Made by a program: the position numbers and the translations under genes
Shown: positions 9,301 through 51,087 of the stretch, piece after piece
How positions within the stretch are numbered: the first letter of the stretch is position 1
Layout: every line of letters starts with the position of its first letter
DNA from: an uncultured Bacteroides sp.
Lineage (GTDB): Bacteria > Bacteroidota > Bacteroidia > Bacteroidales > GCA-2748055
NCBI GenBank assembly: GCA_964458155.1
Contig: CAYWGP010000171.1
Span: 11,073 to 75,072 of the forward strand
Reading direction: 5' to 3'
Length of the DNA: 64,000 nucleotides
Notes under the pieces: generated by a model
Databases searched by the model: none
What the model was told of the DNA's origin: nothing
What the model saw: the letters and a program-made list of their open reading frames with translations, nothing else

Positions 9301-11487
9301 ATGGCGGTAATAAGGTTTAAAGCTCTGGAGCAGGTATTCAACAGAAAACCCTTGCATGTGACACCACCGTCCGACAAAACTTCGGACTATTATGCGATCA
9401 ACGTGTTTGACAGAGTGAAGATGCAGAAGTACCTTTCAAAGGATTCATTTCAGCATGTAATGGATGCAATGGATACAGGATCACCCATTGACAGAAAGAA
9501 AGCAGATTCTGTTGCTTCAGGTATGAAGTCCTGGGCTATAGAAAGGGGAGCTACCCACTACACTCACTGGTTCCAGCCCCTGACTGGAGGAACTGCAGAG
9601 AAGCATGATGCTTTTATACAGGTTAACGAATATGGCGGAGTTGTGGAGGTATTTTCCGGTGGTGCCCTGGCTCAGCAGGAACCCGATGCATCCTCCTTTC
9701 CCAGTGGAGGAATCAGGAATACTTTTGAAGCACGTGGTTATACTGCCTGGGACCCTACTTCCCCTGCCTTCATAATAGATAACACCCTTTGTATACCCAC
9801 CGTATTTATCTCCTACACCGGAGAGGCGCTGGATCACAAAACTCCCCTGTTGAAAACACTTAGTGTGGTCGACAGGGCGGCCACTGAAGTCTGCCAGTTG
9901 TTTGATAAAAACGTGACCAGGGTGAATGCCAACCTGGGCTGGGAGCAGGAGTATTTCCTTATCGATGAGGCATTGTATTATGCCCGGCCCGACCTGGCCC
10001 TAACCGGGCGTACCCTCATGGGTCATGCTTCGGCCAAAGATCAGCAGCTGGACGATCATTATTTTGGGTCCATTCCTGAAAGGGTAACGGCCTTTATGCA
10101 TGATCTGGAATCGGAAGCATATAAACTGGGAATTCCCGTTATGACCCGTCACAACGAGGTGGCTCCAAACCAGTATGAGCTTGCTCCCGTGTTTGAAGAG
10201 TGTAACCTGGCTGTGGATCACAACGCATTGATCATGGACCTGATGAAAAAGGTATCCAGGCACCATAGATTCAGGGTAATTTTTCATGAGAAGCCTTTCA
10301 AAGGGATCAATGGAAGCGGTAAACATAATAACTGGTCACTTGCTACTGATACAGGTATTGTTCTTCACAAACCCGGAAAGAATCCGAAATCAAACCTTCA
10401 GTTCCTCACCTTTGTAGTTTGTAGTGTGAAAGCTGTATTTGAGTACCAGGATCTGCTGCGCGCCAGTATCGCTTCAGCTCCCAACTCTCATCGTCTTGGG
10501 GCAAACGAAGCACCTCCTGCCATCCTCTCCTGCTTCCTGGGATCTGAAGTATCGGCCATGCTCGACCAGCTGGAAGAGCAGGTTACTTCCAAGAAGATGA
10601 CCCCGGATGAAAAAACCGCCCTTAAGCTGGATATTGGAAAGATTCCGGAAATTCTTCTCGACAATACGGACAGGAACCGTACATCGCCCTTTGCCTTTAC
10701 AGGGAACCGTTTCGAATTCAGGGCTGTCGGTAGCAGTACCAACCCTGCTATGCCAATGACTGCATTAAATGCTGCCGTTGCCGGTCAGCTCATCGAATTC
10801 AATAGGCAGGTTGAGGCCCTGGTAGAAGATGGTGTAAAAAAGGATGAAGCTATTTTCCAGGTACTCAGGGAGTATATCATAGCCTCCAAGACCATTCGAT
10901 TTGAGGGTGATAACTACAGTGATGCCTGGATTAAGGAGGCTGCAAAACGTGGCCTTACCAATGTCACTGATGTTCCGGAAGCACTTTCAGCCTACCTAAG
11001 TGACAAATCCAAGAAGCTCTTCTTCGACCTTGGAATTTTCACCGAGGTTGAACTAGAGGGTCGCGTTGAGGTCTTGTTTGAGGAGTATACCAAAAAGATC
11101 CAGATAGAAGCCAGGGTACTGGGCGATATTGCCATGAATCATATAGTACCAACGGCAGTGAAGTACCAGAACAGGCTGGTGCAAAATGTCCTTGGCTTAA
11201 AAGAGATCTACGGCGAAGAGTATAAATCACTGGCAGGAAACAGGATTGAGCTGATCAAGGAGATCTCGGATCATGTTACGGCCATCAAGACAGGCGTGAA
11301 CGAAATGGTCGACGCCAGAAAAGCAGCAAATAAGCTGGACGACGAGAAGGCAAAAGCCAAAGCTTACTCCAAAAATGTGGCTCCTTACCTGGATTCGATC
11401 CGCTACCATATTGATAAGCTGGAGCTTATTGTGGATGATGAGATCTGGCCATTGCCCAAGTACAGGGAGTTGCTGTTTACAAGTTAA
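9301..11487 (+). CDS. glnN: Glutamine synthetase type III
   Basis: 728 aa, the length of GSIII. The N-terminus (DYYAINVFDRVKMQKYLSKD) and catalytic core (NEVAPNQYELAPVFE, NGSGKHNNWS) are characteristic. Confidence 0.95.
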   Translation: MAVIRFKALEQVFNRKPLHVTPPSDKTSDYYAINVFDRVKMQKYLSKDSFQHVMDAMDTGSPIDRKKADSVASGMKSWAIERGATHYTHWFQPLTGGTAEKHDAFIQVNEYGGVVEVFSGGALAQQEPDASSFPSGGIRNTFEARGYTAWDPTSPAFIIDNTLCIPTVFISYTGEALDHKTPLLKTLSVVDRAATEVCQLFDKNVTRVNANLGWEQEYFLIDEALYYARPDLALTGRTLMGHASAKDQQLDDHYFGSIPERVTAFMHDLESEAYKLGIPVMTRHNEVAPNQYELAPVFEECNLAVDHNALIMDLMKKVSRHHRFRVIFHEKPFKGINGSGKHNNWSLATDTGIVLHKPGKNPKSNLQFLTFVVCSVKAVFEYQDLLRASIASAPNSHRLGANEAPPAILSCFLGSEVSAMLDQLEEQVTSKKMTPDEKTALKLDIGKIPEILLDNTDRNRTSPFAFTGNRFEFRAVGSSTNPAMPMTALNAAVAGQLIEFNRQVEALVEDGVKKDEAIFQVLREYIIASKTIRFEGDNYSDAWIKEAAKRGLTNVTDVPEALSAYLSDKSKKLFFDLGIFTEVELEGRVEVLFEEYTKKIQIEARVLGDIAMNHIVPTAVKYQNRLVQNVLGLKEIYGEEYKSLAGNRIELIKEISDHVTAIKTGVNEMVDARKAANKLDDEKAKAKAYSKNVAPYLDSIRYHIDKLELIVDDEIWPLPKYRELLFTS

Positions 11488-11515
11488 TCTCTACCTTTCA
11501 AGCCATATTCATTTA

Positions 11516-11545
11516 AGCCCTCCGTAATTTACGGGGGGCTTTTTA
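11516..11545 (+). terminator. Rho-independent terminator after glnN
   Basis: AGCCCTCCGT / ACGGGGGGCT stem with one G-U pair, followed by TTTTT. Confidence 0.7.
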
Positions 11546-11602
11546 CGTTTTATTATCATAGAAAAAATGGTAATTTTATCAAATTGTAAAAGGCAAGCGA
11601 AA

Positions 11603-38520: not shown

Positions 38521-38550
38521 ATGTCGATGAAAATATCGATAAATGTCGAT
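38521..38550 (+). promoter_or_regulatory. Three direct AT(G/A)TCGAT repeats upstream of the hexahaem gene
   Basis: ATGTCGAT at 38521, ATATCGAT at 38533 and ATGTCGAT at 38543, with 10-12 nt phasing. Confidence 0.3.
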
Positions 38551-38579: not shown

Positions 38580-38651
38580 TCTATATATATAGGGTGTGAA
38601 TCTTTGAACAATAAACCGGACATAGATACTTTAGCATCAAACCAATTAGCT

Positions 38652-39782
38652 ATGAAAATGAAACTATCTAAATTAATGCTACTGGGTGCTGTTGCCCTTC
38701 TTATTGGAGGTGCAGTTATCCTGAGTAGTTGTGAAGGTCCGGAAGGACCTGCGGGTGCCAACGGAACTAACGGTGTTGACGGTGTTGACGGTGTAGACGG
38801 TCAGGACGGTCAGGATGCCAACTCTACCTGTATTCTGTGTCACAGTGATGATCAGGTGATCGTTGCCAAGACCAGGCAGTATAATAATTCTGCCCACAAC
38901 ACCGGTCATACTTCCGGGTATACGAACAGGTCATTTGGTCCCCTGTATAATTGTGCAGGATGTCATACCAGCCAGGGATTCCTGGATGAACTGGTAGGTG
39001 CAAGTAATGTTCCCTATGCTGATATTACCCAGCCAAACTGCTACACCTGTCACAACATCCATGACACCTATACTACGGACGACTGGGCTCTGACAAACGG
39101 CGATCCCACTGTACCCTTTACCAATGCTGCTTATCAAACAGCCGCTGTTGATCTGGGTAACGGTAATCAGTGTACTCAATGTCACCAGTTCTCAGCCTAT
39201 TATCTTGTTATTGATTCGCTTTGGGCGGACTTTGACCTGGGAACGTCGACTGTGACTTTCCCAGCTGATAACAGTCTTAAGCGTGCTGGTGTGCATCATG
39301 CTCCCCAGTACAACATTTTTGCTGGAATGGACCTCTTTGAGTTTACAGGTACAACTGCCTATCCAACCAGCAACCACGTTATGGCTCAGGCTCCTGACGG
39401 ATGTGTTACCTGCCATATGAATGATGGATTTGGTGACCTCACCGGACACTCCATGTCGATGACTTATGATTTCCATGGTCCTGATAATTTGCACTGGTCC
39501 TCCTCTTGTACAGAATGTCATGATGGCGAGGATGAGCTGGATGGCAAAGTTGAAGATATTCAAACTGACGTCCAACTGCTGCTGGATGACCTGGAAACGC
39601 TCTTGCTTGCATCCGGAGTAATGACTGCTGATTATTACATTGCTCCTGGAGTATGGACCACTGACTTAACAGCAGCCACAGTAAATTTCAATGCCATTCG
39701 TGAAGATAAGAGTATTGGATTCCACAACGTGGACTATGTTGAGGCAGTTCTCATGAATACCATTGCAGCTATTACTCCTTAA
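38652..39782 (+). CDS. Hexahaem c-type cytochrome lipoprotein with a collagen-like Gly-X-Y stalk
   Basis: ATG at 38652 gives MKMKLSKLMLLGAVALLIGGAVILSSC, a lipobox. Nine G-X-Y triplets follow, then six CxxCH motifs (CILCH, CAGCH, CYTCH, CTQCH, CVTCH, CTECH). Confidence 0.9.
   Translation: MKMKLSKLMLLGAVALLIGGAVILSSCEGPEGPAGANGTNGVDGVDGVDGQDGQDANSTCILCHSDDQVIVAKTRQYNNSAHNTGHTSGYTNRSFGPLYNCAGCHTSQGFLDELVGASNVPYADITQPNCYTCHNIHDTYTTDDWALTNGDPTVPFTNAAYQTAAVDLGNGNQCTQCHQFSAYYLVIDSLWADFDLGTSTVTFPADNSLKRAGVHHAPQYNIFAGMDLFEFTGTTAYPTSNHVMAQAPDGCVTCHMNDGFGDLTGHSMSMTYDFHGPDNLHWSSSCTECHDGEDELDGKVEDIQTDVQLLLDDLETLLLASGVMTADYYIAPGVWTTDLTAATVNFNAIREDKSIGFHNVDYVEAVLMNTIAAITP
38736..38816 (+). repeat. Collagen-like triplet run with 9-bp tandem DNA repeats
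   Basis: Encodes GPE-GPA-GAN-GTN-GVD-GVD-GVD-GQD-GQD. The DNA reads ggtgttgac ggtgttgac ggtgtagac ggtcaggac ggtcaggat. Confidence 0.9.
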
Positions 39783-39811
39783 TCAGCGAAAGGCGTAATA
39801 ACAAAATAAAA

Positions 39812-39838
39812 AATGGGTGTCCATTCGGGCACCCATTT
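39812..39838. terminator. Bidirectional terminator between the hexahaem gene and the convergent FNR-like regulator
   Basis: AATGGGTG-tccattcggg-CACCCATT, flanked by A6 and T6. Confidence 0.75.
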
Positions 39839-39858
39839 TTTATTGCGGTAAATTTCTT

Positions 39859-40554
39859 TTAGCCTGTTTCGCTGATTTGTTTTATGCGCTTATAGTCGAT
39901 AACCTCAATGGATTTCCCATCCATCTTGATGAGGCCCTCGTCGTTAAACTCCTTCAGCATCCGGATGACCGTTTCGGGGCTCATGCCGGATAATTCGGCC
40001 AGCTCTTTCCTGGATAATGGCAGGTCAAATTCACAATTTTTAAAGATCCGGTCTGCCAGGCACAACAGGATGTCAGCAAGTCTGCCAAAAGCCTGCTTGT
40101 AAGTAAAGCAAAAGAACCTTCCGTATATCTGCAGACTGTTGGAGCTAAGAATATCAATAATTTCTTTTGTGAAATCAAAATTCTCCTTCATCAGGGTACG
40201 GAATGCTTTTACTTCTATTTGCCTGATCTCAGAGTCAATATAGGCCGTGGCAGAGTAGGGGAAATAGGCGTGCTCTTCCGAAACAGAAGAAAGCCCGAGA
40301 AAATTCCTGTCCGGCGTGATCCGCAGTATAAGGGAATTGCTTCCATTTTCCAGGAAAACCTTGGCTAGCCCCGATTCCATATATATTACATGAGATACAA
40401 AGCCGCCTTGTTTGCATATGACCTCTCCTTTCCTGTACTTAATTCTGACAGAGTTCTCATCCAGGAATTCCTTCTGCCCGGGAGTAAGATGCTCGAAGCA
40501 GCGGCACTCGTGGAAACTCAGGGTGCATGCAGAAAACTTTATTGACTCGTCCAT
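39859..40554 (-). CDS. Crp/Fnr-family transcriptional regulator with N-terminal Cys residues
   Basis: It has a cNMP-binding-like beta-roll and a C-terminal HTH (SRKELAELSGMSPETVIRMLKEF). ATG at 40554 is preferred because the GTG at 40575 overlaps a TATATTTG -7 box. The N-terminus reads MDESIKFSACTLSFHECRC. Confidence 0.85.
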   Translation of the reverse strand: MDESIKFSACTLSFHECRCFEHLTPGQKEFLDENSVRIKYRKGEVICKQGGFVSHVIYMESGLAKVFLENGSNSLILRITPDRNFLGLSSVSEEHAYFPYSATAYIDSEIRQIEVKAFRTLMKENFDFTKEIIDILSSNSLQIYGRFFCFTYKQAFGRLADILLCLADRIFKNCEFDLPLSRKELAELSGMSPETVIRMLKEFNDEGLIKMDGKSIEVIDYKRIKQISETG

Positions 40555-40574
40555 CCATCTATGCTTAGAGTTCA

Positions 40575-40582
40575 CAAATATA
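40575..40582 (-). promoter_or_regulatory. -7 promoter box (TATATTTG on the minus strand) for the FNR-like regulator
   Basis: Plus-strand CAAATATA lies 21 nt upstream of the ATG at 40554. Confidence 0.4.
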
Positions 40583-40644: not shown

Positions 40645-40785
40645 CTCGTCCATATTCCGGTGGAATTTCATACATAAATCCCCCTTTTATCAAAGATTAT
40701 GACGTTAGGCACACAATAATTTCGCTAGATTTACTTGCTGAGAACTAAATCATTACACAAGAGATATACCTTAGATTTTACAGGC

Positions 40786-42138
40786 ATGAGAAACTTAAAG
40801 AATGGTTCAGTACGGATTGTTTTCTTAATAATACTATTAAGCGCTGTGATTGGGTGCACTAATTACCAGATTCCAGGGAGTACTTCACCTGGACCAGAGG
40901 AAAACAATTGTGAGACGTGCCATACTGACTATGACCGCCTGGTAGAAGTATATACACCTGATACAGTGGCTCCTGTAAAGGGCTACGGTGTGGAGGCCCC
41001 TCAGTATGCGCCCTATGACCGGGTTTTTTTAGGAGGTAGCGGCTATGATTCTTATAAAGCATCGGGACACTACGCGGTAGGTTGTACAGGCTGTCATAAC
41101 GGCGATGGTGGTACCGGGGAGAAAGATCTTGCTCATACGGGGGATTTCATTTCCCATCCTTCCCAGTTCTATGAAGACAAATGCGCTGCCTGCCACCAGG
41201 ATATTACAAATGATTTTACAAGCAGTATTCATAATGGTACAGGTTTGAAACGTATGGTGGCTATGCGAAGCGGGCTAAGTGGGGCTTCCGAATTTGATCA
41301 GCTTCCACAGCATCAGATAGATGGCTACAATGATAATTGTGCAATATGTCACGGAGACTGTGGTAACTGTCATGTGGTCAGGCCACCCATGAGTGGTGGG
41401 GGATTGGCAGATGGTCATAATTTTAATAAAACACCCGATATGTCCAATGTCTGTCTGAGCTGTCATGCCGAAACTATAGGTCATGATTTCCAGGGTATCG
41501 ATCCGGCTACTGAGCCTGATATTCACCTGACTCTGAATGACTTTGATTGTCTTAGTTGTCATGACGGCCCTGAATTGCATGGGGATGGTCAGCCAGTGGA
41601 CCAGCGCTATGCTTACGCTGAGCTCCCCGAGTGTGAGAGTTGCCACACCGGAATAGAAACTGCAAATAACTTTCATACGGTACATATTGGCGATTTCAAT
41701 TGCCAGGTGTGCCATTCCCAGGACTTCAATAACTGTGGCAGCTGCCATATCGGAGGTGATGACGCCAGAATCCCTGCATATCTGGGTTTCAAGATCGCAG
41801 TCAATCCGCTACCCGATCTGATGGATTATTCATTTACTTTGGTCAGAAGAACAACGACTGCCCCGGATAACTGGGTAGAGTATGGTGTGGCTGAGTATGC
41901 AGACTTTGATGTGCATCCAACATATAACTATGCATCCCCCCATAACATTTTAAGGTTGACCGACCGGACTGATGTAGGAACAGAAAGTTGTAATTCTAAT
42001 TGCCACATCCGCAAGGAAGGGGAGACATACGTGAACAAAGAACTGTATCTGTTCCAGTCTGACCTGCTGGACTGGGAGATGGATGCAGATAGTGCTATCA
42101 TTGTTGATGGTAAGCTGCCCGACTACTGGATGAACTAA
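40786..42138 (+). CDS. Decahaem c-type cytochrome lipoprotein with an additional CX3CH motif, paralog 1
   Basis: ATG at 40786 gives MRNLKNGSVRIVFLIILLSAVIGC, a lipobox. There are ten CxxCH motifs plus C-terminal CNSNCH. Confidence 0.9.
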   Translation: MRNLKNGSVRIVFLIILLSAVIGCTNYQIPGSTSPGPEENNCETCHTDYDRLVEVYTPDTVAPVKGYGVEAPQYAPYDRVFLGGSGYDSYKASGHYAVGCTGCHNGDGGTGEKDLAHTGDFISHPSQFYEDKCAACHQDITNDFTSSIHNGTGLKRMVAMRSGLSGASEFDQLPQHQIDGYNDNCAICHGDCGNCHVVRPPMSGGGLADGHNFNKTPDMSNVCLSCHAETIGHDFQGIDPATEPDIHLTLNDFDCLSCHDGPELHGDGQPVDQRYAYAELPECESCHTGIETANNFHTVHIGDFNCQVCHSQDFNNCGSCHIGGDDARIPAYLGFKIAVNPLPDLMDYSFTLVRRTTTAPDNWVEYGVAEYADFDVHPTYNYASPHNILRLTDRTDVGTESCNSNCHIRKEGETYVNKELYLFQSDLLDWEMDADSAIIVDGKLPDYWMN

Positions 42139-42228
42139 AGTCAGTTTCAGGCTTCAAATTTGCTGACTGATTGATTTCTGTAATCTGGGGATCTTTCGGA
42201 CCCGGATATGATAAAATCATGAAATTTA

Positions 42229-42270
42229 CTGATTTGAATCAGCTTCAGACTGCACCTAAATCAGTTTAAA
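42229..42270 (+). promoter_or_regulatory. Conserved 42-nt block with a palindromic FNR-like box, CTGAT-TTGA-ATCAG, copy 2
   Basis: CTGAT/ATCAG are perfect inverted half-sites with N4 spacing. The block starts exactly 183 nt before the ATG at 42412. Confidence 0.55.
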
Positions 42271-42411
42271 TACAGTGGCTATTTCAATTGTTTTTCCTTT
42301 CACAAATGCCCTAAATACCCAATCTTTACAGCGGTTAATACCATGATTGTCTATTGATTATTTTGTGTGTTAACTACTTCATTTATAATGGATTATTAGA
42401 TTAGAAAAAAT

Positions 42412-43776
42412 ATGAGAAACACAAAGTTTTTTTCAGGGCTGGCCCTATTGTTGATGGTGTTTTTAATTGCCGGGATCGGGTGCACGAATTACCAGGTTCC
42501 GGGAAGCGGGAATAATGGAGAGATCTCTGCCAACTCCTGCGAGGGATGCCACACGGATTATGACCGTCTGGTTGCTGTGCATTCACCTGATACTGCTGCG
42601 CCGGTTGGAGGTTGTGGTGGAGAGGCTCCTCATTACGAGCCATACGACCGGGTTTATCTTGGTGGGACGGGATATGACTCTTTTAAAGCTTCCGGTCATT
42701 ACAGTGTTGGATGTACAGGATGCCATAATGGAAATGGGAAGACGGGTGATAAGAATGAGGCCCATTCGGGTGATTGGATTTCCTCACCCTCCCTTGATCA
42801 CCAGGAGAAATGTGTTACCTGTCATGAGAGTGTAAGCGATGGTTTTGTCACCAGTATTCACAATGGAACCGGACAGAAGCGAAAGGTAACCATGCGATCG
42901 GGATTGGCAGGACCGGAAGAATTTGATCAGCTGCCCGCACACCAGATAGATGGCTATAACCAGAAATGTTCGGTATGCCATGGTACCTGTGGAAATTGCC
43001 ACGTTGTACGCCCCGACATTGCCGGGGGAGGCTTATCCAATGGACATAATTTCAATAAGACCCCGGATTGGTACAATATATGTTCGGCCTGCCATGTATC
43101 CAGGGGTGCGCACGCATTCCTTGGTGTGAATCCGGAAACTGAACCTGACTTTCACAGAGATGAGTTAGATTTTACCTGCCTGACATGCCATGATGGTGTT
43201 GAGCTTCACGGTGACGGACAGCCGGTAGAGCAGCGTTATGCCTATACCGAGCTGCCCGAGTGTGAAGATTGTCATGAGGGACTGGAAAGGGAGAACAATT
43301 TTCACTCGATGCACTATGACGATTTTCAGTGTCAGATCTGCCACTCTCAGGATTATAACAACTGTGGCGAGTGCCACATTGCAGATGGCCATGCTGAATA
43401 TGGGCCATATATGGACTTTAAGATCGCCATGAACACAATTCCTGATATTAAGGAACATAAGTTAGCCCTGGTTCGCCGCACCCTTGCTTACCCCGATAAC
43501 TGGGTGGGCTTTGGAGAGGATCTTACATATGATAACTTTGAGGAGTTTCCAACCTATAATTATACCACTCCTCATAATATACTGGAGAGAACCACACGCA
43601 CAGATGTGGGTAGTGGAGCCTGTTATTCCAATTGCCACATACGCAATGAAGGTGGAACACTGATTAATTCAGAGTATTATCTCTGGAAAGACAGTCTGCT
43701 TACATGGGAACTGGAGGCCACTCAGGCTTATGCTGTGGACGGGCAATTGCCAGCCTCCTGGTTCGAAGAAAAATAG
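42412..43776 (+). CDS. Decahaem c-type cytochrome lipoprotein with an additional CX3CH motif, paralog 2
   Basis: Lipobox MVFLIAGIGC. All ten CxxCH motifs sit at the same relative spacing as in paralog 1. The C-terminus has CYSNCH. Confidence 0.9.
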   Translation: MRNTKFFSGLALLLMVFLIAGIGCTNYQVPGSGNNGEISANSCEGCHTDYDRLVAVHSPDTAAPVGGCGGEAPHYEPYDRVYLGGTGYDSFKASGHYSVGCTGCHNGNGKTGDKNEAHSGDWISSPSLDHQEKCVTCHESVSDGFVTSIHNGTGQKRKVTMRSGLAGPEEFDQLPAHQIDGYNQKCSVCHGTCGNCHVVRPDIAGGGLSNGHNFNKTPDWYNICSACHVSRGAHAFLGVNPETEPDFHRDELDFTCLTCHDGVELHGDGQPVEQRYAYTELPECEDCHEGLERENNFHSMHYDDFQCQICHSQDYNNCGECHIADGHAEYGPYMDFKIAMNTIPDIKEHKLALVRRTLAYPDNWVGFGEDLTYDNFEEFPTYNYTTPHNILERTTRTDVGSGACYSNCHIRNEGGTLINSEYYLWKDSLLTWELEATQAYAVDGQLPASWFEEK

Positions 43777-43825
43777 CAAACAATTCCAACAATAGAAAAT
43801 AATGTTTAACCAAATCACTATTAAA

Positions 43826-44815
43826 ATGAAGATTATATCGAAGATGAAATTTTGGATGTTAGCCATCCTGGTTGTTCCATTTTTCCTGGTTTCCTGCGAC
43901 AATGATGAGGATCCCGAAGAGGTAAATGAAGCTGAAGTACTCATTGAATACATGGAAAATCCGGGATCGCCGGCTGCCAACTATGGCAACTCAGGTCTTG
44001 CTATCAAGAGTGCCGAGGCTACTCATGCAGGAGTGGTTGCGGACAATGTATATGTCATTGACATTCGAGCTGCTGCTGATTACACTACCGGTCACATCGA
44101 AGGAGCAGTAAATCTTGCTGCTGCTGATGTGAGGGCTCATATTGATGCCACCGATCTAAGCGCTTTCAATGAAATTCACATTGTATGTTATACCGGTCAG
44201 TCTGCTTCCTGGCTGACCAGCCTCCTGCAGCTGGCAGGTTACAAAAACGTTTATTCCATGAAATGGGGAATGAGCGGATGGCACTCTGACTTTGACAAAT
44301 GGACCGCAAATACCAACAGCGACAAGGCCACCCTTTTTGTAGAAGCTTCGACTGATAAAGCTGCTGAAGGAGATCTTCCTGTCCTGACTACCGGTTATGA
44401 AGAAGGAGTAGATATCTTTGAAGCCCGTTATGATGCAGTACTGGCCGAAGGTTTTGGCCCAGCCGCAGTTTCTCAGGGTGATGTATATGCCAGCCTGGAC
44501 AATTATTACATCATTAATTACTGGCCTAATGCTGAGTACATTGATCCGGGTCACATCGATGGCTCCATGCAGTATACTCCCAACGAGGACCTTCAGTTGG
44601 GCACTTACTTAAAGACTCTGCCTACCGACAAAACTATCGCTGTGTATTGCTATACCGGGCAGAACAGTGCAAGAATTGCAGCTTATCTGAGGCTTATGGG
44701 ATACGATGCCAAGTCACTGAAGTTTGGGGCCAACAGTATGATCTGGTCTGAGATGACCAAATCCAAGTGGACTCCTGAAGCACCAATGCAATATGATTAT
44801 GTTGGAATGAAATAA
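43826..44815 (+). CDS. Tandem-rhodanese (sulfurtransferase-like) lipoprotein
   Basis: Lipobox VVPFFLVSC followed by an acidic DNDEDPEE tail. There are two rhodanese domains, each with a catalytic-loop Cys (VCYTGQSAS, YCYTGQNSA). Alternative starts are at 43802 and 43844. Confidence 0.85.
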   Translation: MKIISKMKFWMLAILVVPFFLVSCDNDEDPEEVNEAEVLIEYMENPGSPAANYGNSGLAIKSAEATHAGVVADNVYVIDIRAAADYTTGHIEGAVNLAAADVRAHIDATDLSAFNEIHIVCYTGQSASWLTSLLQLAGYKNVYSMKWGMSGWHSDFDKWTANTNSDKATLFVEASTDKAAEGDLPVLTTGYEEGVDIFEARYDAVLAEGFGPAAVSQGDVYASLDNYYIINYWPNAEYIDPGHIDGSMQYTPNEDLQLGTYLKTLPTDKTIAVYCYTGQNSARIAAYLRLMGYDAKSLKFGANSMIWSEMTKSKWTPEAPMQYDYVGMK

Positions 44816-44860
44816 GCAAAAGTACTTTGATGCTAGTTTTAACATAGTAAGCTACAACTA

Positions 44861-44894
44861 TAAGGGTGCTCCTGTTTGGGCACCCTTATTTGTT
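44861..44894 (+). terminator. Rho-independent terminator after the rhodanese gene
   Basis: TAAGGGTGC (44861-44869) pairs with GCACCCTTA (44880-44888), followed by TTTGTT. Confidence 0.7.
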
Positions 44895-45077
44895 CTTTAT
44901 ATATCCGGGTTCCCAATAATTTTAGCCTTGCACCGCTTCAGGATCGGAAAAACAAAGAATTTATAATGGTTATAGATTAGGCATTCCGGGCAATTTTGGC
45001 CCGGATATTGAATTATAATTGATAAGAAATAGATTATTTTAGCGAACAAGTCTGAAATTATCAAAAAACAATTAGCT

Positions 45078-45605
45078 ATGTTGACAAAACGAATATTCAC
45101 TTTAGCCTTGATGGTCTTCTTTGCAGGGAGTGCACTGATGGCCCAGAATTTCAAGTACATTGGAGCAGCAAAATGTAAAATGTGTCATGTGAAGCCCGCT
45201 ACAGGTGAACAGTACAATATTTGGTTAAAAGGTCCCCATGCAGGAGCCATGAAAACCCTGGCCGGTGATGAAGCAAAGAAAATTGCCACTGAAAAGGGAA
45301 TTGCTGATCCCACAACGGATGCAGCCTGTATCAGCTGTCACGCTACTGTTGCCGGTGTTGATGCCAAACTAATTGCCAGTGCAAAAATGGATGAGGGTGT
45401 TTCCTGCGAAACCTGCCACGGACCAGGAAGCATGTACAAGGGAGCTTCGGTTATGAAGAACCGTGATCTGGCCCTAACAAAAGGAATGATAATTCCTACG
45501 GAGGAGACATGTACAGCCTGTCACAATGAAAAGAGTCCTACCTTTAAGGGCTTTAATTACACTGAGATGTTAGCTAAGATTGCTCATCCCAATCCTGCAA
45601 AATAA
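45078..45605 (+). CDS. Tetrahaem c-type cytochrome (cytochrome c554-like small multihaem protein), secreted
   Basis: 175 aa with a Sec signal peptide (AGSALMAQN) and four CxxCH motifs (CKMCH, CISCH, CETCH, CTACH). Confidence 0.88.
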   Translation: MLTKRIFTLALMVFFAGSALMAQNFKYIGAAKCKMCHVKPATGEQYNIWLKGPHAGAMKTLAGDEAKKIATEKGIADPTTDAACISCHATVAGVDAKLIASAKMDEGVSCETCHGPGSMYKGASVMKNRDLALTKGMIIPTEETCTACHNEKSPTFKGFNYTEMLAKIAHPNPAK

Positions 45606-46533: not shown

Positions 46534-49335
46534 TTAATGTACTCCTCCTGCAATGAGAGTGTAAACAATAGCTATGATCAGGAGGATCCCAATGATCAGT
46601 GCCGTAAATCCCAGGATTCTAATCATGCGCATGTAATCTTTGGAGAATTCTTTCGCATGGACTCGTTGATCCAGCTTTCCGGCCTCTTTTAATTCCTCGT
46701 ATTCCCGGGGACGTTCATGTTTGAAGTGTTCAAGGGGCATATATCCCGTAAATATTACGGTATCCATGGGGAAAGCTTCCGGCCTGAAATGTGTATTGAA
46801 GAAGTGGATGGTGAAAATAAATCCAACCGCCAGCAGCGCTTCATCACTGTGAATGATCTGGCTTATATTGATGAGCCATCCCGGGAAGAAACGGGTGAAG
46901 AATACCGGGAACCACAGTACAAGGCCGCTGAATCCGATTACTGCAACCCCCCAGAAGACAGCAATGTAGTCAAACTTCTCCCAGTAGGTCCATCTGCCAT
47001 AATAAGGCCTGGGACCTTTTCCAAGGAACCATTTTATAGTGGCAACGAAATCCCTTATATCCTGCTTGTTGAACCAGAGAGTGTCTTTGCCAAAAATAAA
47101 TTTGGTCATGGAAAGCCTTTTCCTCCTTTTCTCCCGAATCAGGTTAAAAATGTGGAAGGCGAAATAGCCAAAGGTGATTACAGCACCAATGCGATGTAGC
47201 ACGCCGGCAGTTTGGACACCTCCAAAGAACCTGGACAGAAACTTTGCCCAATCCATATGGGCAAACTTCAGCATCATTCCGGTCACGGCCAGAAGGATGA
47301 AACTAATAATTACGAAAATATGCGTGATCCGTTGGTTCTTGCTGAAGCGTTTATAGTAGAGATTCCCGGTTTCTTTGGGTCCTTCTTTCCTCTTTTTCCG
47401 TCTTTCTTTTACAGATCTGGGCAACCACATCAGGAGGTGAATTCCGAAGAAAGTAAATACACCCAGCAAAAGTGCGGTCATAAAGATATATGCATAATGC
47501 AATTTTGGATCATCTTTATGAGTGGCATGGCTCAAATAACCAGTAAAACGTTTGTTTGCTCCCTCATGGCAGCTTCCACAGGTTGTCACCAGGTTTTCTT
47601 CAGAGACCATGGATGCCGGGTTATTGGCCTTCAGGATATTGTGCGCACCATGACAATCGGAACACCTGGCGCTTTCATAGTAGCCCAGCTGATAGGCTTT
47701 GCCATGATAAGTTTGCATGTACGTTTTTGCCGTTTCCTCATGACAGGATCCACACTGGTGAGTAACTTCATTCATAAATTTATCCTGTCCAACAGTAGAA
47801 ATCTCATGTGCACTGTGACATTTAACGCAGGTGGGATACTCAGTACCCTGGGGGTCGGTTCTGTAGGCATGGTCGCTTTCCAGGTAGGTCTCATAGATTC
47901 CTTGATGACAGACCCCGCAGGTCGTCTGAACATTTGCAGGATGTACCGAAGAGCGTTCATCCTCCATTTTCAGCTCCATGTGGGAGGTGTGGCAGTCGGT
48001 ACATACAGCACTTACCGTTAATCCTTTGCCTGTGAGCCCCATGCCATGGACACTGGAGGAATAATCAGCCAAAGCATTGGTCTCAAGGATACCCTCCACC
48101 TCGGCTGCTAAGCCGTCCTCTCGGTGACATTCTCCGCACAATTGGGGGATTGCCATTCTGTAAACAGGGGAGGTGTCGTCGTATTTGGATTTAGTTGCAT
48201 GTGTCCCGTGACAATCGGTGCAGTAAGGGGCGTTTGCCTGATTATTATAATACGCCTGGCCATGCCCGCTTTCAAAGTACATACCAGAGATCTCGGCATG
48301 GCAGGATGAGCAGTCCACCGGCTGGTTGGTGGAGCAGGGGCGTTGCAGATGATCGGTAACCTGAGTATGACAATCGGTACACTGGATATTCTTGTGTACT
48401 GAATTGGGGAGCTCACGATTATCCCGGAATAAGGAAACAGTATCCCCCCCGACTATCTTATGCAAATTTTCATCCTGGTGGCACTTCATACATGCCTGGT
48501 CAGATATCCTGGCCTGAATCTTGGGTACGTCCACAATATGGGGCGGGTGACAGGAAGAACAGGCTGGAATGATACTTGGATTCTTCTCCCACAGCTCGCC
48601 CTTGATTACCTTTTTATGGGCTTCCTCAATTCTTGTGTGACATTTCATGCAGGTACCGGCAATCCTGTTTGTGGAAATGGAGGAATTGGGACTGGTATGA
48701 GGAAGCACCAGGTGGTTGCCGTGACAGTCGTTGCAGGTGGCAGTTACTACCAGTCCGGCTTCAAATAAGCCCTGGCCATGAATACCCTGGGTATAGTTCT
48801 CCACGATATTGTGTTCAGATACATCATATACCCTGGCCACAACCTCGCCCTCTTTGTGGCATCTTCCACAGAGGTAGGGAATATTCATCTTATAGGTGCG
48901 GGATGCTGTATTGCTGTTATGCAGGATATCGTGGTGACCGTGGCACTCCTTGCAGCTGGGAGCATTGGAATCATTACTTAAGAGAGCCTGTCCATGGACA
49001 CCTCTTACATTATTTTCCATCTCAACAGTATGGCAGCTTCCGCAATTGACCGGTTTCAGATCATCGGCATGGGGAAAACCTTCATCGGCAGCATCGGAAT
49101 GACAGGAGATACAGGTGTTGCTGTGGTGAACCGAGTGTGCAAAGATGGAGGTATCCACAAACATGGACACGGTCCTGCCATGGAGTAAACCGGTCAGTGA
49201 GCGGTCCTCATGGCACATCATACAATCCTCATCGGCCTGTGCAGTTACCAGGCCTGAAAACGAGCCTGCTACTATGAACAGAATGAACCAGAATGCCCTG
49301 GTTCTGGAGAGTGAAAACAAGTAATTATTGGTCAT
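46534..49335 (-). CDS. 19-haem c-type cytochrome fused to an integral-membrane cytochrome-b-like domain (CbcL-like quinol:cytochrome module)
   Basis: 933 aa with a signal peptide and 19 CxxCH motifs in aa 38-590, many of the paired form CxxCHGxH. From about aa 611 there are 5-6 TM helices with conserved His ([32 protein letters not shown]). Confidence 0.9.
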
Positions 49336-49745
49336 TTTTCAGGGTGTTCAGTTAGACGGGTAAAATAGTGATTATTAAATATTAAACACCTAATATCAAG
49401 GATATTGGGCGCAATTTATATCTAATCTGAATATAGATCAACTCCCTATTCGTGTTCTTCGTGGTAGCCGTTGATCATACTCATAAATAGAGTTCCAGAT
49501 TTGTCATCCAAAGTACAGGTATATTCTATTTTTTCCCATGTCAGCTTTTTTTTGTTTTCGAATACGCAAAAAGGAATGGAAGGCGATTACCAGCAGGGTT
49601 CCTCCAAATACAAGCAGACTGAGCCGGTTAAGCCACACGTTGTGATTTTCTTGAGCTTAAGAGTTTCATCCTGCTGGGCAGAGAGGGTGCTTGCAAGGGT
49701 CAGCAGGAGATTTATCAGCAAACCTGTTTGGGTGTTTCATTAATC

Positions 49746-50579
49746 TTAGAACCTGATTGTGATGTTAAAACCAAAGCGGAAATCACCATCCCAGGGATCA
49801 TTGCTGTTAAATGCAATACTCTGATTCCTCACAATGTAGTCGTAGGTGGATGCGAAAACCCTGAATGAGTGGGTGCTGGTTCCGATCTCCACACCAAAGG
49901 CCAGGTTTGGATATACATCTGTATCAGCATCAATCAGAGGCTGCTCATATTCAAGTATGATGGAAGAAAAGCCCAGTACCTGAAAACGCGCTCCTGCATT
50001 GATGGAAGCATTTATATTGTTATATCCTTCCGGCACCGCGTTGAACCATACAAAAGTAGGTAATACCTGTAAACTGATCTTTTCTCCGACCCTGCTGGAT
50101 ATAATCAGCTCATTGAGATAGGACATGCGGTAGGCAAACTTGTAATCCTCTTCAGGTCCGAAGTATTTCTGGTCACGTGCATCCAGGACTGCATTACCAT
50201 GGTAGGACAGGGAAATAGGCAAGCTACTGTTCTGGGTCAGAATGGCATATTTCCACTCCAGGTCCTGAAGCATGTCTTTCCGGGTGGTACCAAAACCCAC
50301 CATAAGCTTGTCGGTAATTCCGTAGCTGATTCCAATCCGGGTATTGGCACTTCCATAGATCCCGTACAGGTCGTTAATCTCTTCGATCTGGGAGAAACGG
50401 TGCTGGATTTCCAGCATGAATTGTCCCTTGTAAGGGCTTGCAGTGGTCTGGGCATCTACCAGAGTCAGTGTCTCAAAAGCCGGCATTACCGGAGTGGGCT
50501 CATCCTGGGCAAATAAAAGCCCTGAGCTTAAGAATGCAATAATACAGGTAGTGGCGCTTAGTTTTGTATATCGTCTCAT
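49746..50579 (-). CDS. Small outer-membrane beta-barrel protein (DUF5777-like as I recall the family)
   Basis: 277 aa with signal peptide LLFAQDE, alternating amphipathic strands, and C-terminal ...GFNITIRF ending in Phe. Confidence 0.7.
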   Translation of the reverse strand: MRRYTKLSATTCIIAFLSSGLLFAQDEPTPVMPAFETLTLVDAQTTASPYKGQFMLEIQHRFSQIEEINDLYGIYGSANTRIGISYGITDKLMVGFGTTRKDMLQDLEWKYAILTQNSSLPISLSYHGNAVLDARDQKYFGPEEDYKFAYRMSYLNELIISSRVGEKISLQVLPTFVWFNAVPEGYNNINASINAGARFQVLGFSSIILEYEQPLIDADTDVYPNLAFGVEIGTSTHSFRVFASTYDYIVRNQSIAFNSNDPWDGDFRFGFNITIRF

Positions 50580-50599: not shown

Positions 50600-50959
50600 T
50601 CAGTTGTCCTCGGCTCCTTCGTCGATCCAGCCAAGGATTGTTAATAAGTCATCTTCAGTTACCCGGTCGGCATGGGAGCCGGTTAGAATTTCATACAGAT
50701 AGCTGGAGCAGGGAAAATCAACGTCCACATAATCACCATCTATCAATTCATCGTATGACCAGTCAGGACTCAGGTCGGGATTCTGACCTCCGCTGTGACA
50801 GCTTACGCAATTCTGATCAAATATGGGCTGAACATCGTTGGCATAACTTACGCCGGTTGGCAGATCGTCCGGACAGGGCGGTTCCGGGATCTCATATTGC
50901 GTACAGGATGACAGAATCATCAGCACAGATCCTGTCAGTATCAACATCATTCTTCTCAT
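50600..50959 (-). CDS. Monohaem cytochrome-c-like lipoprotein
   Basis: 119 aa with lipobox MILSSC and a single CVSCH in a VQPIFDQNCVSCHSGG context, similar to planctomycete-type cytochrome c domains. Confidence 0.75.
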   Translation of the reverse strand: MRRMMLILTGSVLMILSSCTQYEIPEPPCPDDLPTGVSYANDVQPIFDQNCVSCHSGGQNPDLSPDWSYDELIDGDYVDVDFPCSSYLYEILTGSHADRVTEDDLLTILGWIDEGAEDN

Positions 50960-51087
50960 ATCAATACATTTTATGTTTTCAGCTGAATTTTTGCTGTTGT
51001 TGAGTGCGAAAGATAAGTGTTCTGGCAGATTGTAAGAAAAAATATCAATGAAGATAGAATAAGTTTTTTATGGGGATAGATCATCTA

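Follow-up and report, generated by a model that had tools for sequence, protein, structure and literature searches.

What is a collagen-like Gly-X-Y run doing on a respiratory protein? The question is raised by a 64,000-nucleotide stretch of DNA from an uncultured Bacteroides sp. (contig CAYWGP010000171.1; hereafter the window), in which a predicted lipoprotein with six CxxCH haem motifs carries nine such triplets between its lipid anchor and its first haem. The sequence-only reading of this locus had proposed a collagen-like stalk, encoded by slippage-prone 9-bp repeats, that holds a haem domain away from the membrane. We compared the gene, its protein and its surroundings with relatives in protein, genome and metagenome data. 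We are highly confident that the locus encodes a lipid-anchored hexahaem cytochrome on a conserved, length-variable Gly-X-Y tether, as part of a respiratory module. For the physical nature of the tether, a clamped collagen-type triple helix is our tentative choice among several readings that are weighed below.

A Gly-X-Y run joins the lipid anchor to the first haem

The hexahaem lipoprotein is encoded on the + strand by an open reading frame of 376 aa that extends from an ATG at 38652 to 39782, with an in-frame TTG at 38604. The ATG is the likely start because homologues begin at the same MK(K/M)KLS position. Upstream of it and in frame, the stretch 38604-38651 (LNNKPDIDTLASNQLA) shows amino-acid conservation in the gene calls of three relatives (P0009, P0024 and P0027); it is probably a conserved 5' leader or promoter and not coding. 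The protein begins MKMKLSKLMLLGAVALLIGGAVILSSC-E-GPE GPA GAN GTN GVD GVD GVD GQD GQD-ANST-CILCH. Its hydrophobic leader and lipobox cysteine are kept in all full-length relatives, and Cys27 is predicted to be the lipidated residue of a signal peptidase II type lipoprotein. Translation and a six-frame scan both place the nine uninterrupted triplets between the first Gly codon at 38736 and the end of the last triplet at 38816, as first read, except that a single residue (Glu28), and not two, separates the lipidated cysteine from the first glycine. The six CxxCH motifs lie at residues 60, 101, 130, 174, 251 and 286, and a motif scan of the protein found no CxxCK.

A search of 5.8 billion proteins returned more than 1000 relatives of the hexahaem lipoprotein, named only "hypothetical protein" in their sources and derived from metagenome-assembled genomes (MAGs) of Bacteroidota or Bacteroidales. 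Within the top 120, identity falls from 89% at the best match to about 36-40%, and the full-length proteins all present a lipobox cysteine, then E or TKE, then 4-12 triplets and a CxxCH motif. To these top protein matches we added the proteins read from 82 related genomic loci, many of them on incomplete contigs, to give 181 distinct relatives. Every one of the 181 has the run, with 4-11 triplets and a mode of 8. The family layout is C-E-(GXY)n-[T or ANST]-CxxCH, the first haem being joined to the lipidated cysteine through the tether. The run is preceded by C-E in 126 relatives and by C-T-K-E in 51, and the junction between the run and the haem cysteine measures one or four residues in 172 of the 181, exceeding four in only one. 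In those 172, the linker is nothing but the triplet run and this fixed junction.

The composition of the run is also patterned. The X position of the first triplet is proline in 94% of cases and that of the second in 73%, so that the end beside the anchor is Pro-rich, and Y across all triplets is most often Asp (43%), Ala (21%) or Asn (12%). Linker charge has a median of -5, with a net charge of -3 or lower in 91% of linkers. C27, E28, G29 and G32 are invariant in an 80-sequence alignment, and some clades (P0061-P0064) have runs of 11-12 triplets that are wholly of the GPx type.

We also asked how often such runs arise elsewhere. The window holds no other run of at least five Gly-X-Y triplets in six frames of 64 kb. 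Across 1.3 Mb of related loci, all runs of at least five triplets map to the hexahaem gene, apart from antisense or out-of-frame readings of the same gene and one frameshifted copy (locus L014). A chance origin is ruled out by this uniqueness in the window and by the single source in 1.3 Mb of related DNA. Nor is the run a generic linker of the neighbouring lipoproteins: none occurs in the two decahaem, the rhodanese, the 5'-nucleotidase or the monohaem lipoproteins.

At greater distances the length range widens. An exhaustive profile search of 50%-identity representatives gave 702 clusters at E <= 1e-30, and run length among the best 146 of these representatives spans 0-16 triplets. Four full-length lipoproteins have no run (P0178, P0184, P0241 and P0263) and one has two triplets only (P0172). 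The same layout recurs across Bacteroidota, and MAGs that bear a Marinimicrobia or Chlorobiota label have it too. A relative is encoded in 354 species genomes; of the 80 best listed, nearly all are uncultured Bacteroidales or Bacteroidota, and the family occurs mostly in uncultured Bacteroidales from sediments. The Gly-X-Y run is thus a hallmark of the family and not a product of chance.

Two loci carry tandem hexahaem paralogues (L023, 2186-4550; L024, 1852-4220). Their leaders are identical and each copy has eight triplets, slightly different between copies; one copy has five CxxCH motifs only.

Slippage changes the length of the run while its glycines are kept

The GVD/GQD part of the run had been described as a set of near-identical 9-bp repeats prone to slippage, with the suggestion that its length might differ between strains. 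Tandem Repeats Finder resolves two arrays there, 3.6 copies with a 95% match at 38770-38801 and 2.2 copies with a 100% match at 38796-38815. The predicted variation was found in metagenome assemblies: contigs of two marine-sediment runs (X5 and X9) that otherwise have 0-2 differences from the window lack exactly 9 bp at 38768. This is one GVD unit, leaving eight triplets in place of nine, and establishes strain-level length variation, while in other runs the assemblies break inside the 9-bp repeat. Slippage of the 9-bp units is therefore active in the window's species. Comparable strain variation in repeat number is known from the Bucl collagen-like proteins (PMC4565658).

Adjacent units are identical at 8 or more of 9 bases in 35 of the 82 loci, the window among them, which indicates recent duplication. 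In 24 of the 82 loci, neighbouring units agree at 6 of 9 bases at most, and Gly periodicity is still perfect over 5-11 triplets. Glycine periodicity that outlasts the divergence of its DNA units indicates purifying selection on the Gly positions and not a mere by-product of slippage.

The haem domain belongs to the NrfA/ONR/OcwA superfamily

We modelled the protein as a monomer with AlphaFold2 (AF2), using the 80-sequence alignment. The mean predicted local distance difference test score (pLDDT) was 80, with low confidence only at residues 28-65 and in a short loop at 136-138. The C-terminus forms long helices (residues 293-374, nt 39528-39773) that carry the motif S354-I-G-F-H358-N. A profile search of PDB sequences found first OcwA of Thermincola (6i5b; E = 2.5e-12), then the octahaem nitrite reductases (ONR) and NrfA. 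In these alignments the window's SIGFHNVDY helix lies over DGSNGVHNYD of OcwA and ENSVGFHNP of NrfA, and a conserved S-x-G-[FV]-H-N helix is aligned with OcwA, ONR and Desulfovibrio NrfA. Foldseek likewise placed OcwA first (E = 9e-4, probability 1.0), at a TM-score of 0.44 that denotes moderate similarity, followed by ONR, a Carboxydothermus S-layer undecahaem cytochrome (6qvm) and NrfA. The hexahaem domain is a member of the NrfA/ONR/OcwA superfamily, and the likeness to NrfA/HAO-type helical tails, which the sequence-only reading had put forward at low confidence, is borne out by the helix alignment, with OcwA as the best fold match.

Membership in the superfamily does not make the protein an NrfA. 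It lacks the CxxCK catalytic haem and falls below all NrfA model thresholds, matching neither PF02335 nor an NrfA NCBIfam model at E <= 0.1; PF02335 is precomputed for several family members. For PF22113, the MtrC/OmcA decahaem cytochrome domain, the window protein scores 32.4 bits against a cutoff of 30, and no MtrC, OmcA or UndA structure was among its 41 Foldseek matches. Haem 1 is matched to either haem 1 or haem 2 of NrfA, depending on the alignment: it falls on the CxxCK haem in the ONR alignment and on haem 2 in those of Desulfovibrio NrfA.

OcwA is a cell-surface terminal reductase in which two haems of open coordination lie under His-His motifs (PMC6703420). A family-invariant pair, H215-H216, aligns with an OcwA HH pair at low posterior probability; by residue count, this would be HH380/381 over an open-coordination haem (PMC6703420). 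We take a catalytic haem at H215/H216 as a lead only.

Some relatives from other organisms are giants of 1300-1950 aa (P0137, P0217, P0232 and P0235). They have no Gly-X-Y run; in each, two or three octa- or nonahaem modules of the NrfA/ONR/OcwA superfamily follow one another in tandem and are joined to PKD, Ig-like, CARDB and TSP3 domains, a domain set that suggests extracellular multihaem arrays.

A clamped triple helix as a tentative model of the tether

We tentatively read the tether as a clamped collagen-type triple-helical stalk, a proposal that we rate somewhat short of an even chance. Three co-anchored chains would zip up into a short triple helix of the collagen type, starting at the Pro-rich triplets next to the membrane (EGPxGPxG), and this helix would be clamped by three lipid anchors at one end and by a trimeric haem domain at the other. 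The acidic stalk, about 7.7 nm long (3-14 nm across the family), would set the distance of the haem domain from the membrane, and gain or loss of a 9-bp unit by replication slippage would alter that distance between strains. The haem domain would accept electrons from a quinol-oxidising cytochrome b and multihaem partners and hand them to a terminal acceptor; it could sit at the cell surface, as OcwA does, or hang into the periplasm from the outer membrane. The fuller picture, in which sediment Bacteroidales keep a trimeric hexahaem cytochrome of the NrfA/OcwA type at 3-14 nm from their outer membrane by means of a rigid, Asp-lined, length-tunable collagen stalk, is more tentative again.

The attraction of the triple helix is that it would require just what the family displays: strict Gly periodicity, Pro-rich membrane-proximal triplets and a fixed phase at both ends. 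We know of no other well-known fold that needs Gly at each third residue. The ONR and HAO relatives of the haem domain assemble around three-fold axes. The computed length of 27 residues is about 7.7 nm as a triple helix and about 8.4 nm as a single polyproline-II strand.

Several observations weigh against it. The run of the window protein has nine triplets only; its 27 residues include just 2 Pro and no hydroxyproline, and their net charge is about -7. Its Y positions are mostly Asp or Asn, and hardly a basic residue offsets its strong acidity. On the Persikov host-guest scale, Asp and Asn in Y are reportedly poor helix stabilisers, and an isolated peptide of this type should not fold. Model matches are likewise below threshold for the window protein, at 19.5 bits against 27.2 for Pfam Collagen PF01391 and 17.7 against 325 for NCBIfam SclB; a precomputed PF01391 match exists in a few longer relatives (P0070, P0089 and P0110). 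Over the run, pLDDT in the monomer prediction is 44-57. NrfA is a dimer. The closest solved relative, OcwA, is a mix of monomer and dimer in solution and not a trimer (PMC6703420). Relatives with 0-5 triplets exist among the 50%-identity representatives. One of those without a run, P0184, is still flanked by a monohaem-sized gene and a DUF5777 gene (see below) and has, where the run would be, a short and acidic linker that resembles a surface-export signal (C-S-K-D-E-N-E-D-E). By the measure of the sequence-only reading, under which homologues that lack the run with no functional difference would speak against a stalk, a run-less relative in the same gene context makes the stalk dispensable for the module. 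Finally, a stalk that is rigid and insulating over about 8 nm would cut the haems off from any donor at membrane level.

Alternative readings of the tether

Many of these same observations would suit a monomeric tether, a reading that we consider unlikely but place first among the alternatives. The run would here be an extended, semi-flexible, acidic polyproline-II-like leash, its length tuned by 9-bp slippage, on which a single cytochrome swings between a membrane-near donor and an acceptor up to about 8 nm off, on the principle of cytochrome c_y. A short, Pro-poor, strongly acidic run fits such a leash, as do the low AF2 confidence over it, the run-less relative in its unchanged gene context, and an OcwA that is not trimeric (PMC6703420). 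The continuous length range of 0-16 triplets points the same way, 3-5 triplets being too short for a cooperative helix, and a flexible leash would remove the long electron-transfer distance that a rigid, insulating stalk imposes. What a monomeric tether leaves unexplained is the nearly unbroken spacing of Gly at three-residue intervals in the 181 relatives, including those whose DNA units have diverged, and the fixed phase of the run relative to the haem cysteine.

A role in sorting or as an acidic spacer, which may overlap with either a triple helix or a monomeric tether, is in our estimate improbable. The conserved C-E-G-P or C-T-K-E-G-P start and the Asp-rich run would serve as the lipoprotein export signal of Bacteroidota or stand in for it, and the cytochrome would be turned out onto the cell surface, reaching through the lipopolysaccharide layer towards insoluble acceptors. 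That signal has been defined experimentally as C-X-K-(D/E)2 or Q-A-(D/E)2 at positions +2 to +6 (PMC5080379). The linker of P0184 fits the C-X-K-(D/E)2 form (PMC5080379), 51 of the 181 relatives begin C-T-K-E, and a net charge no higher than -3 is found in 91% of linkers. In structure, the domain comes closest to two cytochromes of the cell surface, OcwA and the Carboxydothermus S-layer undecahaem, and the giant relatives bear PKD, Ig and TSP3 domains. The window protein itself, however, reads C-E-G-P-E-G, in which no K or Q stands before two acidic residues at +3 to +5, and falls short of even the minimal form of the canonical export signal; KD alone was insufficient in the test protein of that study (PMC5080379). 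About five residues would be enough for a signal, not 27, and periodic Gly would be needless. The module also has no large porin-cytochrome to carry electrons across the outer membrane.

We regard as very improbable that the run is a polyproline-II strand bound to a partner, its Gly face packed on another protein. One version has it threading the DUF5777 barrel encoded nearby, like the RcsF linker in the lumen of OmpA/C/F, with the outer membrane between anchor and haem domain. On a helix of three residues per turn, Gly in each third position would line up as one flat face, 27 extended residues (about 8 nm) can span an outer membrane, and the barrel, a small one of about 12 strands in a low-confidence model, co-occurs in about 62 of the 82 loci. 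Against this, the barrel model is too poor (pLDDT 54) to give a lumen size, relatives with 0-4 triplets keep DUF5777, and seven acidic residues make the linker an unlikely barrel passenger.

Least credible of all is an evolutionary by-product, a self-propagating coding microsatellite tolerated in the linker with a periodicity that comes only from 9-bp slippage: the 35 loci with near-identical adjacent units, the window included, and the one-unit polymorphism in its species would suit this, but it is disfavoured by the 24 loci in which diverged units retain intact Gly codons, by first two GPx triplets that are conserved and lie outside the DNA repeats, and by a layout kept across Bacteroidota and the Marinimicrobia- and Chlorobiota-labelled MAGs.

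Two further candidates were rejected. GVDGVDGVD partly fits the RTX calcium beta-roll consensus GGxGxDxUx, but the number of triplets in family members is not a multiple of three, and a beta-roll would need more than three nonapeptides. The Bacteroidota O-glycosylation motif D-(S/T)-(A/I/L/V/M/T) is absent from the junction sequence.

The gene lies in a conserved respiratory module

The hexahaem gene keeps recurrent company in the 82 loci. A homologue of the Crp/Fnr-family regulator adjoins it, divergent or convergent, in 68; a monohaem lipoprotein of about 135 aa is found in 52, a DUF5777 beta-barrel in about 62, a heptahaem cytochrome in 63 and a PhsC-like cytochrome b in 64. The last four are usually in one operon. 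Together, the regulator and these partners make up a conserved respiratory electron-transfer module. Positions in the window are given in Table 1.

Table 1. Features of the hexahaem lipoprotein locus and its surroundings, in window coordinates
Feature	Position	Strand	Basis
Palindrome TCGATGAAAATATCGA, candidate operator	38524..38539		Offset conservation among loci
Signal peptide and lipobox (M1..L-S-S-C27), predicted	38652..38732	+	Sequence; leader reads ...AVILSS-C27
Glu28 and nine uninterrupted Gly-X-Y triplets, collagen-like tether	38733..38816	+	Translation, six-frame scan
Two overlapping 9-bp tandem arrays encoding GVD x3 and GQD x2	38770..38815	+	Tandem Repeats Finder
ANST junction and hexahaem c-type cytochrome domain	38817..39782	+	CxxCH scan, AF2, profile matches, Foldseek
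Hairpin flanked by A-run and U-run, likely terminator	39805..39844		Folding -25.7 kcal/mol, z-score -6.8
Crp/Fnr-family regulator (cNMP-binding domain and HTH_Crp_2)	39859..40575	-	Pfam, NCBIfam matches
Clade-specific decahaem lipoproteins, two paralogous	40735-42138 and 42412-43776	+	CxxCH and domain matches
Clade-specific rhodanese lipoprotein	43802-44815	+	Domain matches
Clade-specific c554-like tetrahaem	45078-45605	+	Domain matches
933-aa fusion of 19-haem cytochrome c domain and cytochrome b domain	46534..49335	-	19 CxxCH
C-terminal remnants of heptahaem cytochrome and PhsC-like cytochrome b	49449..49647	-	tblastn with L003 genes
DUF5777 outer-membrane beta-barrel protein	49746..50579	-	Pfam PF19089, E = 1e-60
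Small monohaem lipoprotein, first gene of partner operon	50603..50974	-	One CxxCH, lipobox LSSC

Downstream of the hexahaem gene, the strong hairpin at 39805-39844 folds better than all of 200 shuffles and probably serves as a terminator in both directions for the hexahaem gene and the regulator gene, which converge on it. The regulator has an N-terminal cysteine cluster (…SAC-TLSFHE-C-R-C-FEH…) that presumably resembles the iron-sulfur ligands of Fnr, and on account of this likeness it may sense oxygen or redox state. Upstream, the palindrome TCGATGAAAATATCGA, of the form TCGAT-N6-ATCGA, lies 206 nt before the lipid-Cys codon in the window and in loci L003, L004, L005 and L014, and at -223 in L007 and -226 in L008. 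The 1.32 Mb of loci contain only 19 sites of this type. The palindrome is a candidate operator to which the adjacent Crp/Fnr-family regulator may bind.

Among the partners, the window's monohaem lipoprotein has a tblastn match to a gene at 11142-11549 of locus L002. For the DUF5777 protein no PDB sequence relative was found; its AF2 model of about 12 strands is of low confidence (pLDDT 54), from a shallow alignment of sequences at least 74% identical, and Foldseek returned generic outer-membrane barrel matches only. DUF5777 is far more conserved than the hexahaem protein, with all 120 best matches at least 74% identical.

The heptahaem and cytochrome b genes are present in the window as remnants only, in the interval 49336-49745 between DUF5777 and a 19-haem/cytochrome b fusion. 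Compared with the genes of L003, the remnants cover heptahaem residues 289-321 at 58% identity and cytochrome b residues 183-207 at 80%. Both genes are intact in L003 and L005; L014 and L015 match both, with the genes fragmented in L014. This suggests two deletions in the window genome, or an assembly artefact. The neighbouring fusion matches Pfam Ni_hydr_CYTB and multihaem domains as well as DmsE-family and formate-dehydrogenase gamma models of NCBIfam, making it a candidate quinol dehydrogenase; it may resemble CbcL of Geobacter.

Between the regulator and the fusion, the accessory genes at 40735..45605 are found only in the 9-14 closest loci. The mature N-terminus of the rhodanese lipoprotein (C-D-N-D-E-D-P-E-E) is strongly acidic and resembles an export signal, which suggests surface exposure of this protein, and its presence suggests a link to sulfur compounds for the clade-specific gene set. 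One metatranscriptome only, from sediment, holds fragments of the cluster, which come from relatives at 85-90% identity and include the hexahaem gene; the c554-like tetrahaem is the best-covered part, at a word depth of 13 and above. From the gene set as a whole, we infer a quinol-fed multihaem chain associated with the outer membrane.

Novelty and significance

In bacteria, collagen-like segments have been described on adhesins, in spore fibres and in one efflux duct. Strain-variable segments of this kind in Scl, BclA and Bucl, and lipid-anchored and tethered cytochromes, are already established; what is new is the combination, in which a Gly-X-Y run directly links lipid anchor and first haem and is retained in hundreds of species. 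A full-text literature search combining collagen with multihaem or cytochrome found no description of a collagen-like run on a respiratory protein, and a search for DUF5777 found nothing relevant.

If the tether acts as a ruler or a leash, it offers a simple handle, one that varies naturally between strains, on an open question in electron transfer outside the cell and in the periplasm: what decides the position of a haem domain with respect to the membrane. If a collagen stalk is the right reading, this would be, to our knowledge, the first redox enzyme on one, and strain-level 9-bp slippage would adjust how far it extends towards mineral acceptors or partners in the periplasm. The definition of the module, with its DUF5777 barrel, monohaem lipoprotein, heptahaem cytochrome and PhsC-like cytochrome b, gives DUF5777 a respiratory context under any reading of the tether.

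Comparison with known systems

The nearest counterpart of the haem domain is OcwA of Thermincola potens, a nonahaem cytochrome of the outer cell wall (6i5b). The two share a globular multihaem domain with a C-terminal helix bundle, including the S-x-G-V-H-N helix, and in both all haems are CxxCH with no CxxCK. The window protein differs in having six haems in place of nine, at about 18% identity and a TM-score of 0.44, and in being a diderm lipoprotein, whereas OcwA is a Gram-positive cell-wall protein without a Gly-X-Y segment. The pentahaem NrfA and octahaem ONR nitrite reductases have homologous C-terminal haem motifs and long helices, but are soluble or NrfH-bound, while the window protein is lipid-anchored on its Gly-X-Y tether and lacks CxxCK.

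For the tether, the closest parallels are Scl1/Scl2 of Streptococcus, BclA of Bacillus and Bucl of Burkholderia, which have the same uninterrupted Gly-X-Y encoded by short tandem DNA repeats, a repeat number that varies between strains, and a run set beside a globular domain and a membrane or wall anchor. Bucl proteins have 3 to 63 repeats and include a lipoprotein, Bucl8 (PMC4565658). The run described here is, in contrast, much shorter (mode 8), Asp/Asn-rich in Y, Pro-poor and placed directly after the lipidated cysteine. Its cargo is a multihaem redox domain, in place of an adhesin or efflux duct.

Two further systems are alike in principle. Cytochrome c_y of Rhodobacter also has its redox domain on a membrane anchor, the two being separated by a long linker of low complexity that determines reach by its length; that linker is Ala/Pro-rich without periodic Gly, the anchor is transmembrane and the protein has one haem. 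Braun's lipoprotein, Lpp, is a lipid-anchored trimeric alpha-helical coiled-coil rod of about 8 nm that serves as a periplasmic ruler and has no cargo domain. The likeness to Lpp is functional only, and would hold only if the triple-helix reading of the tether is right.

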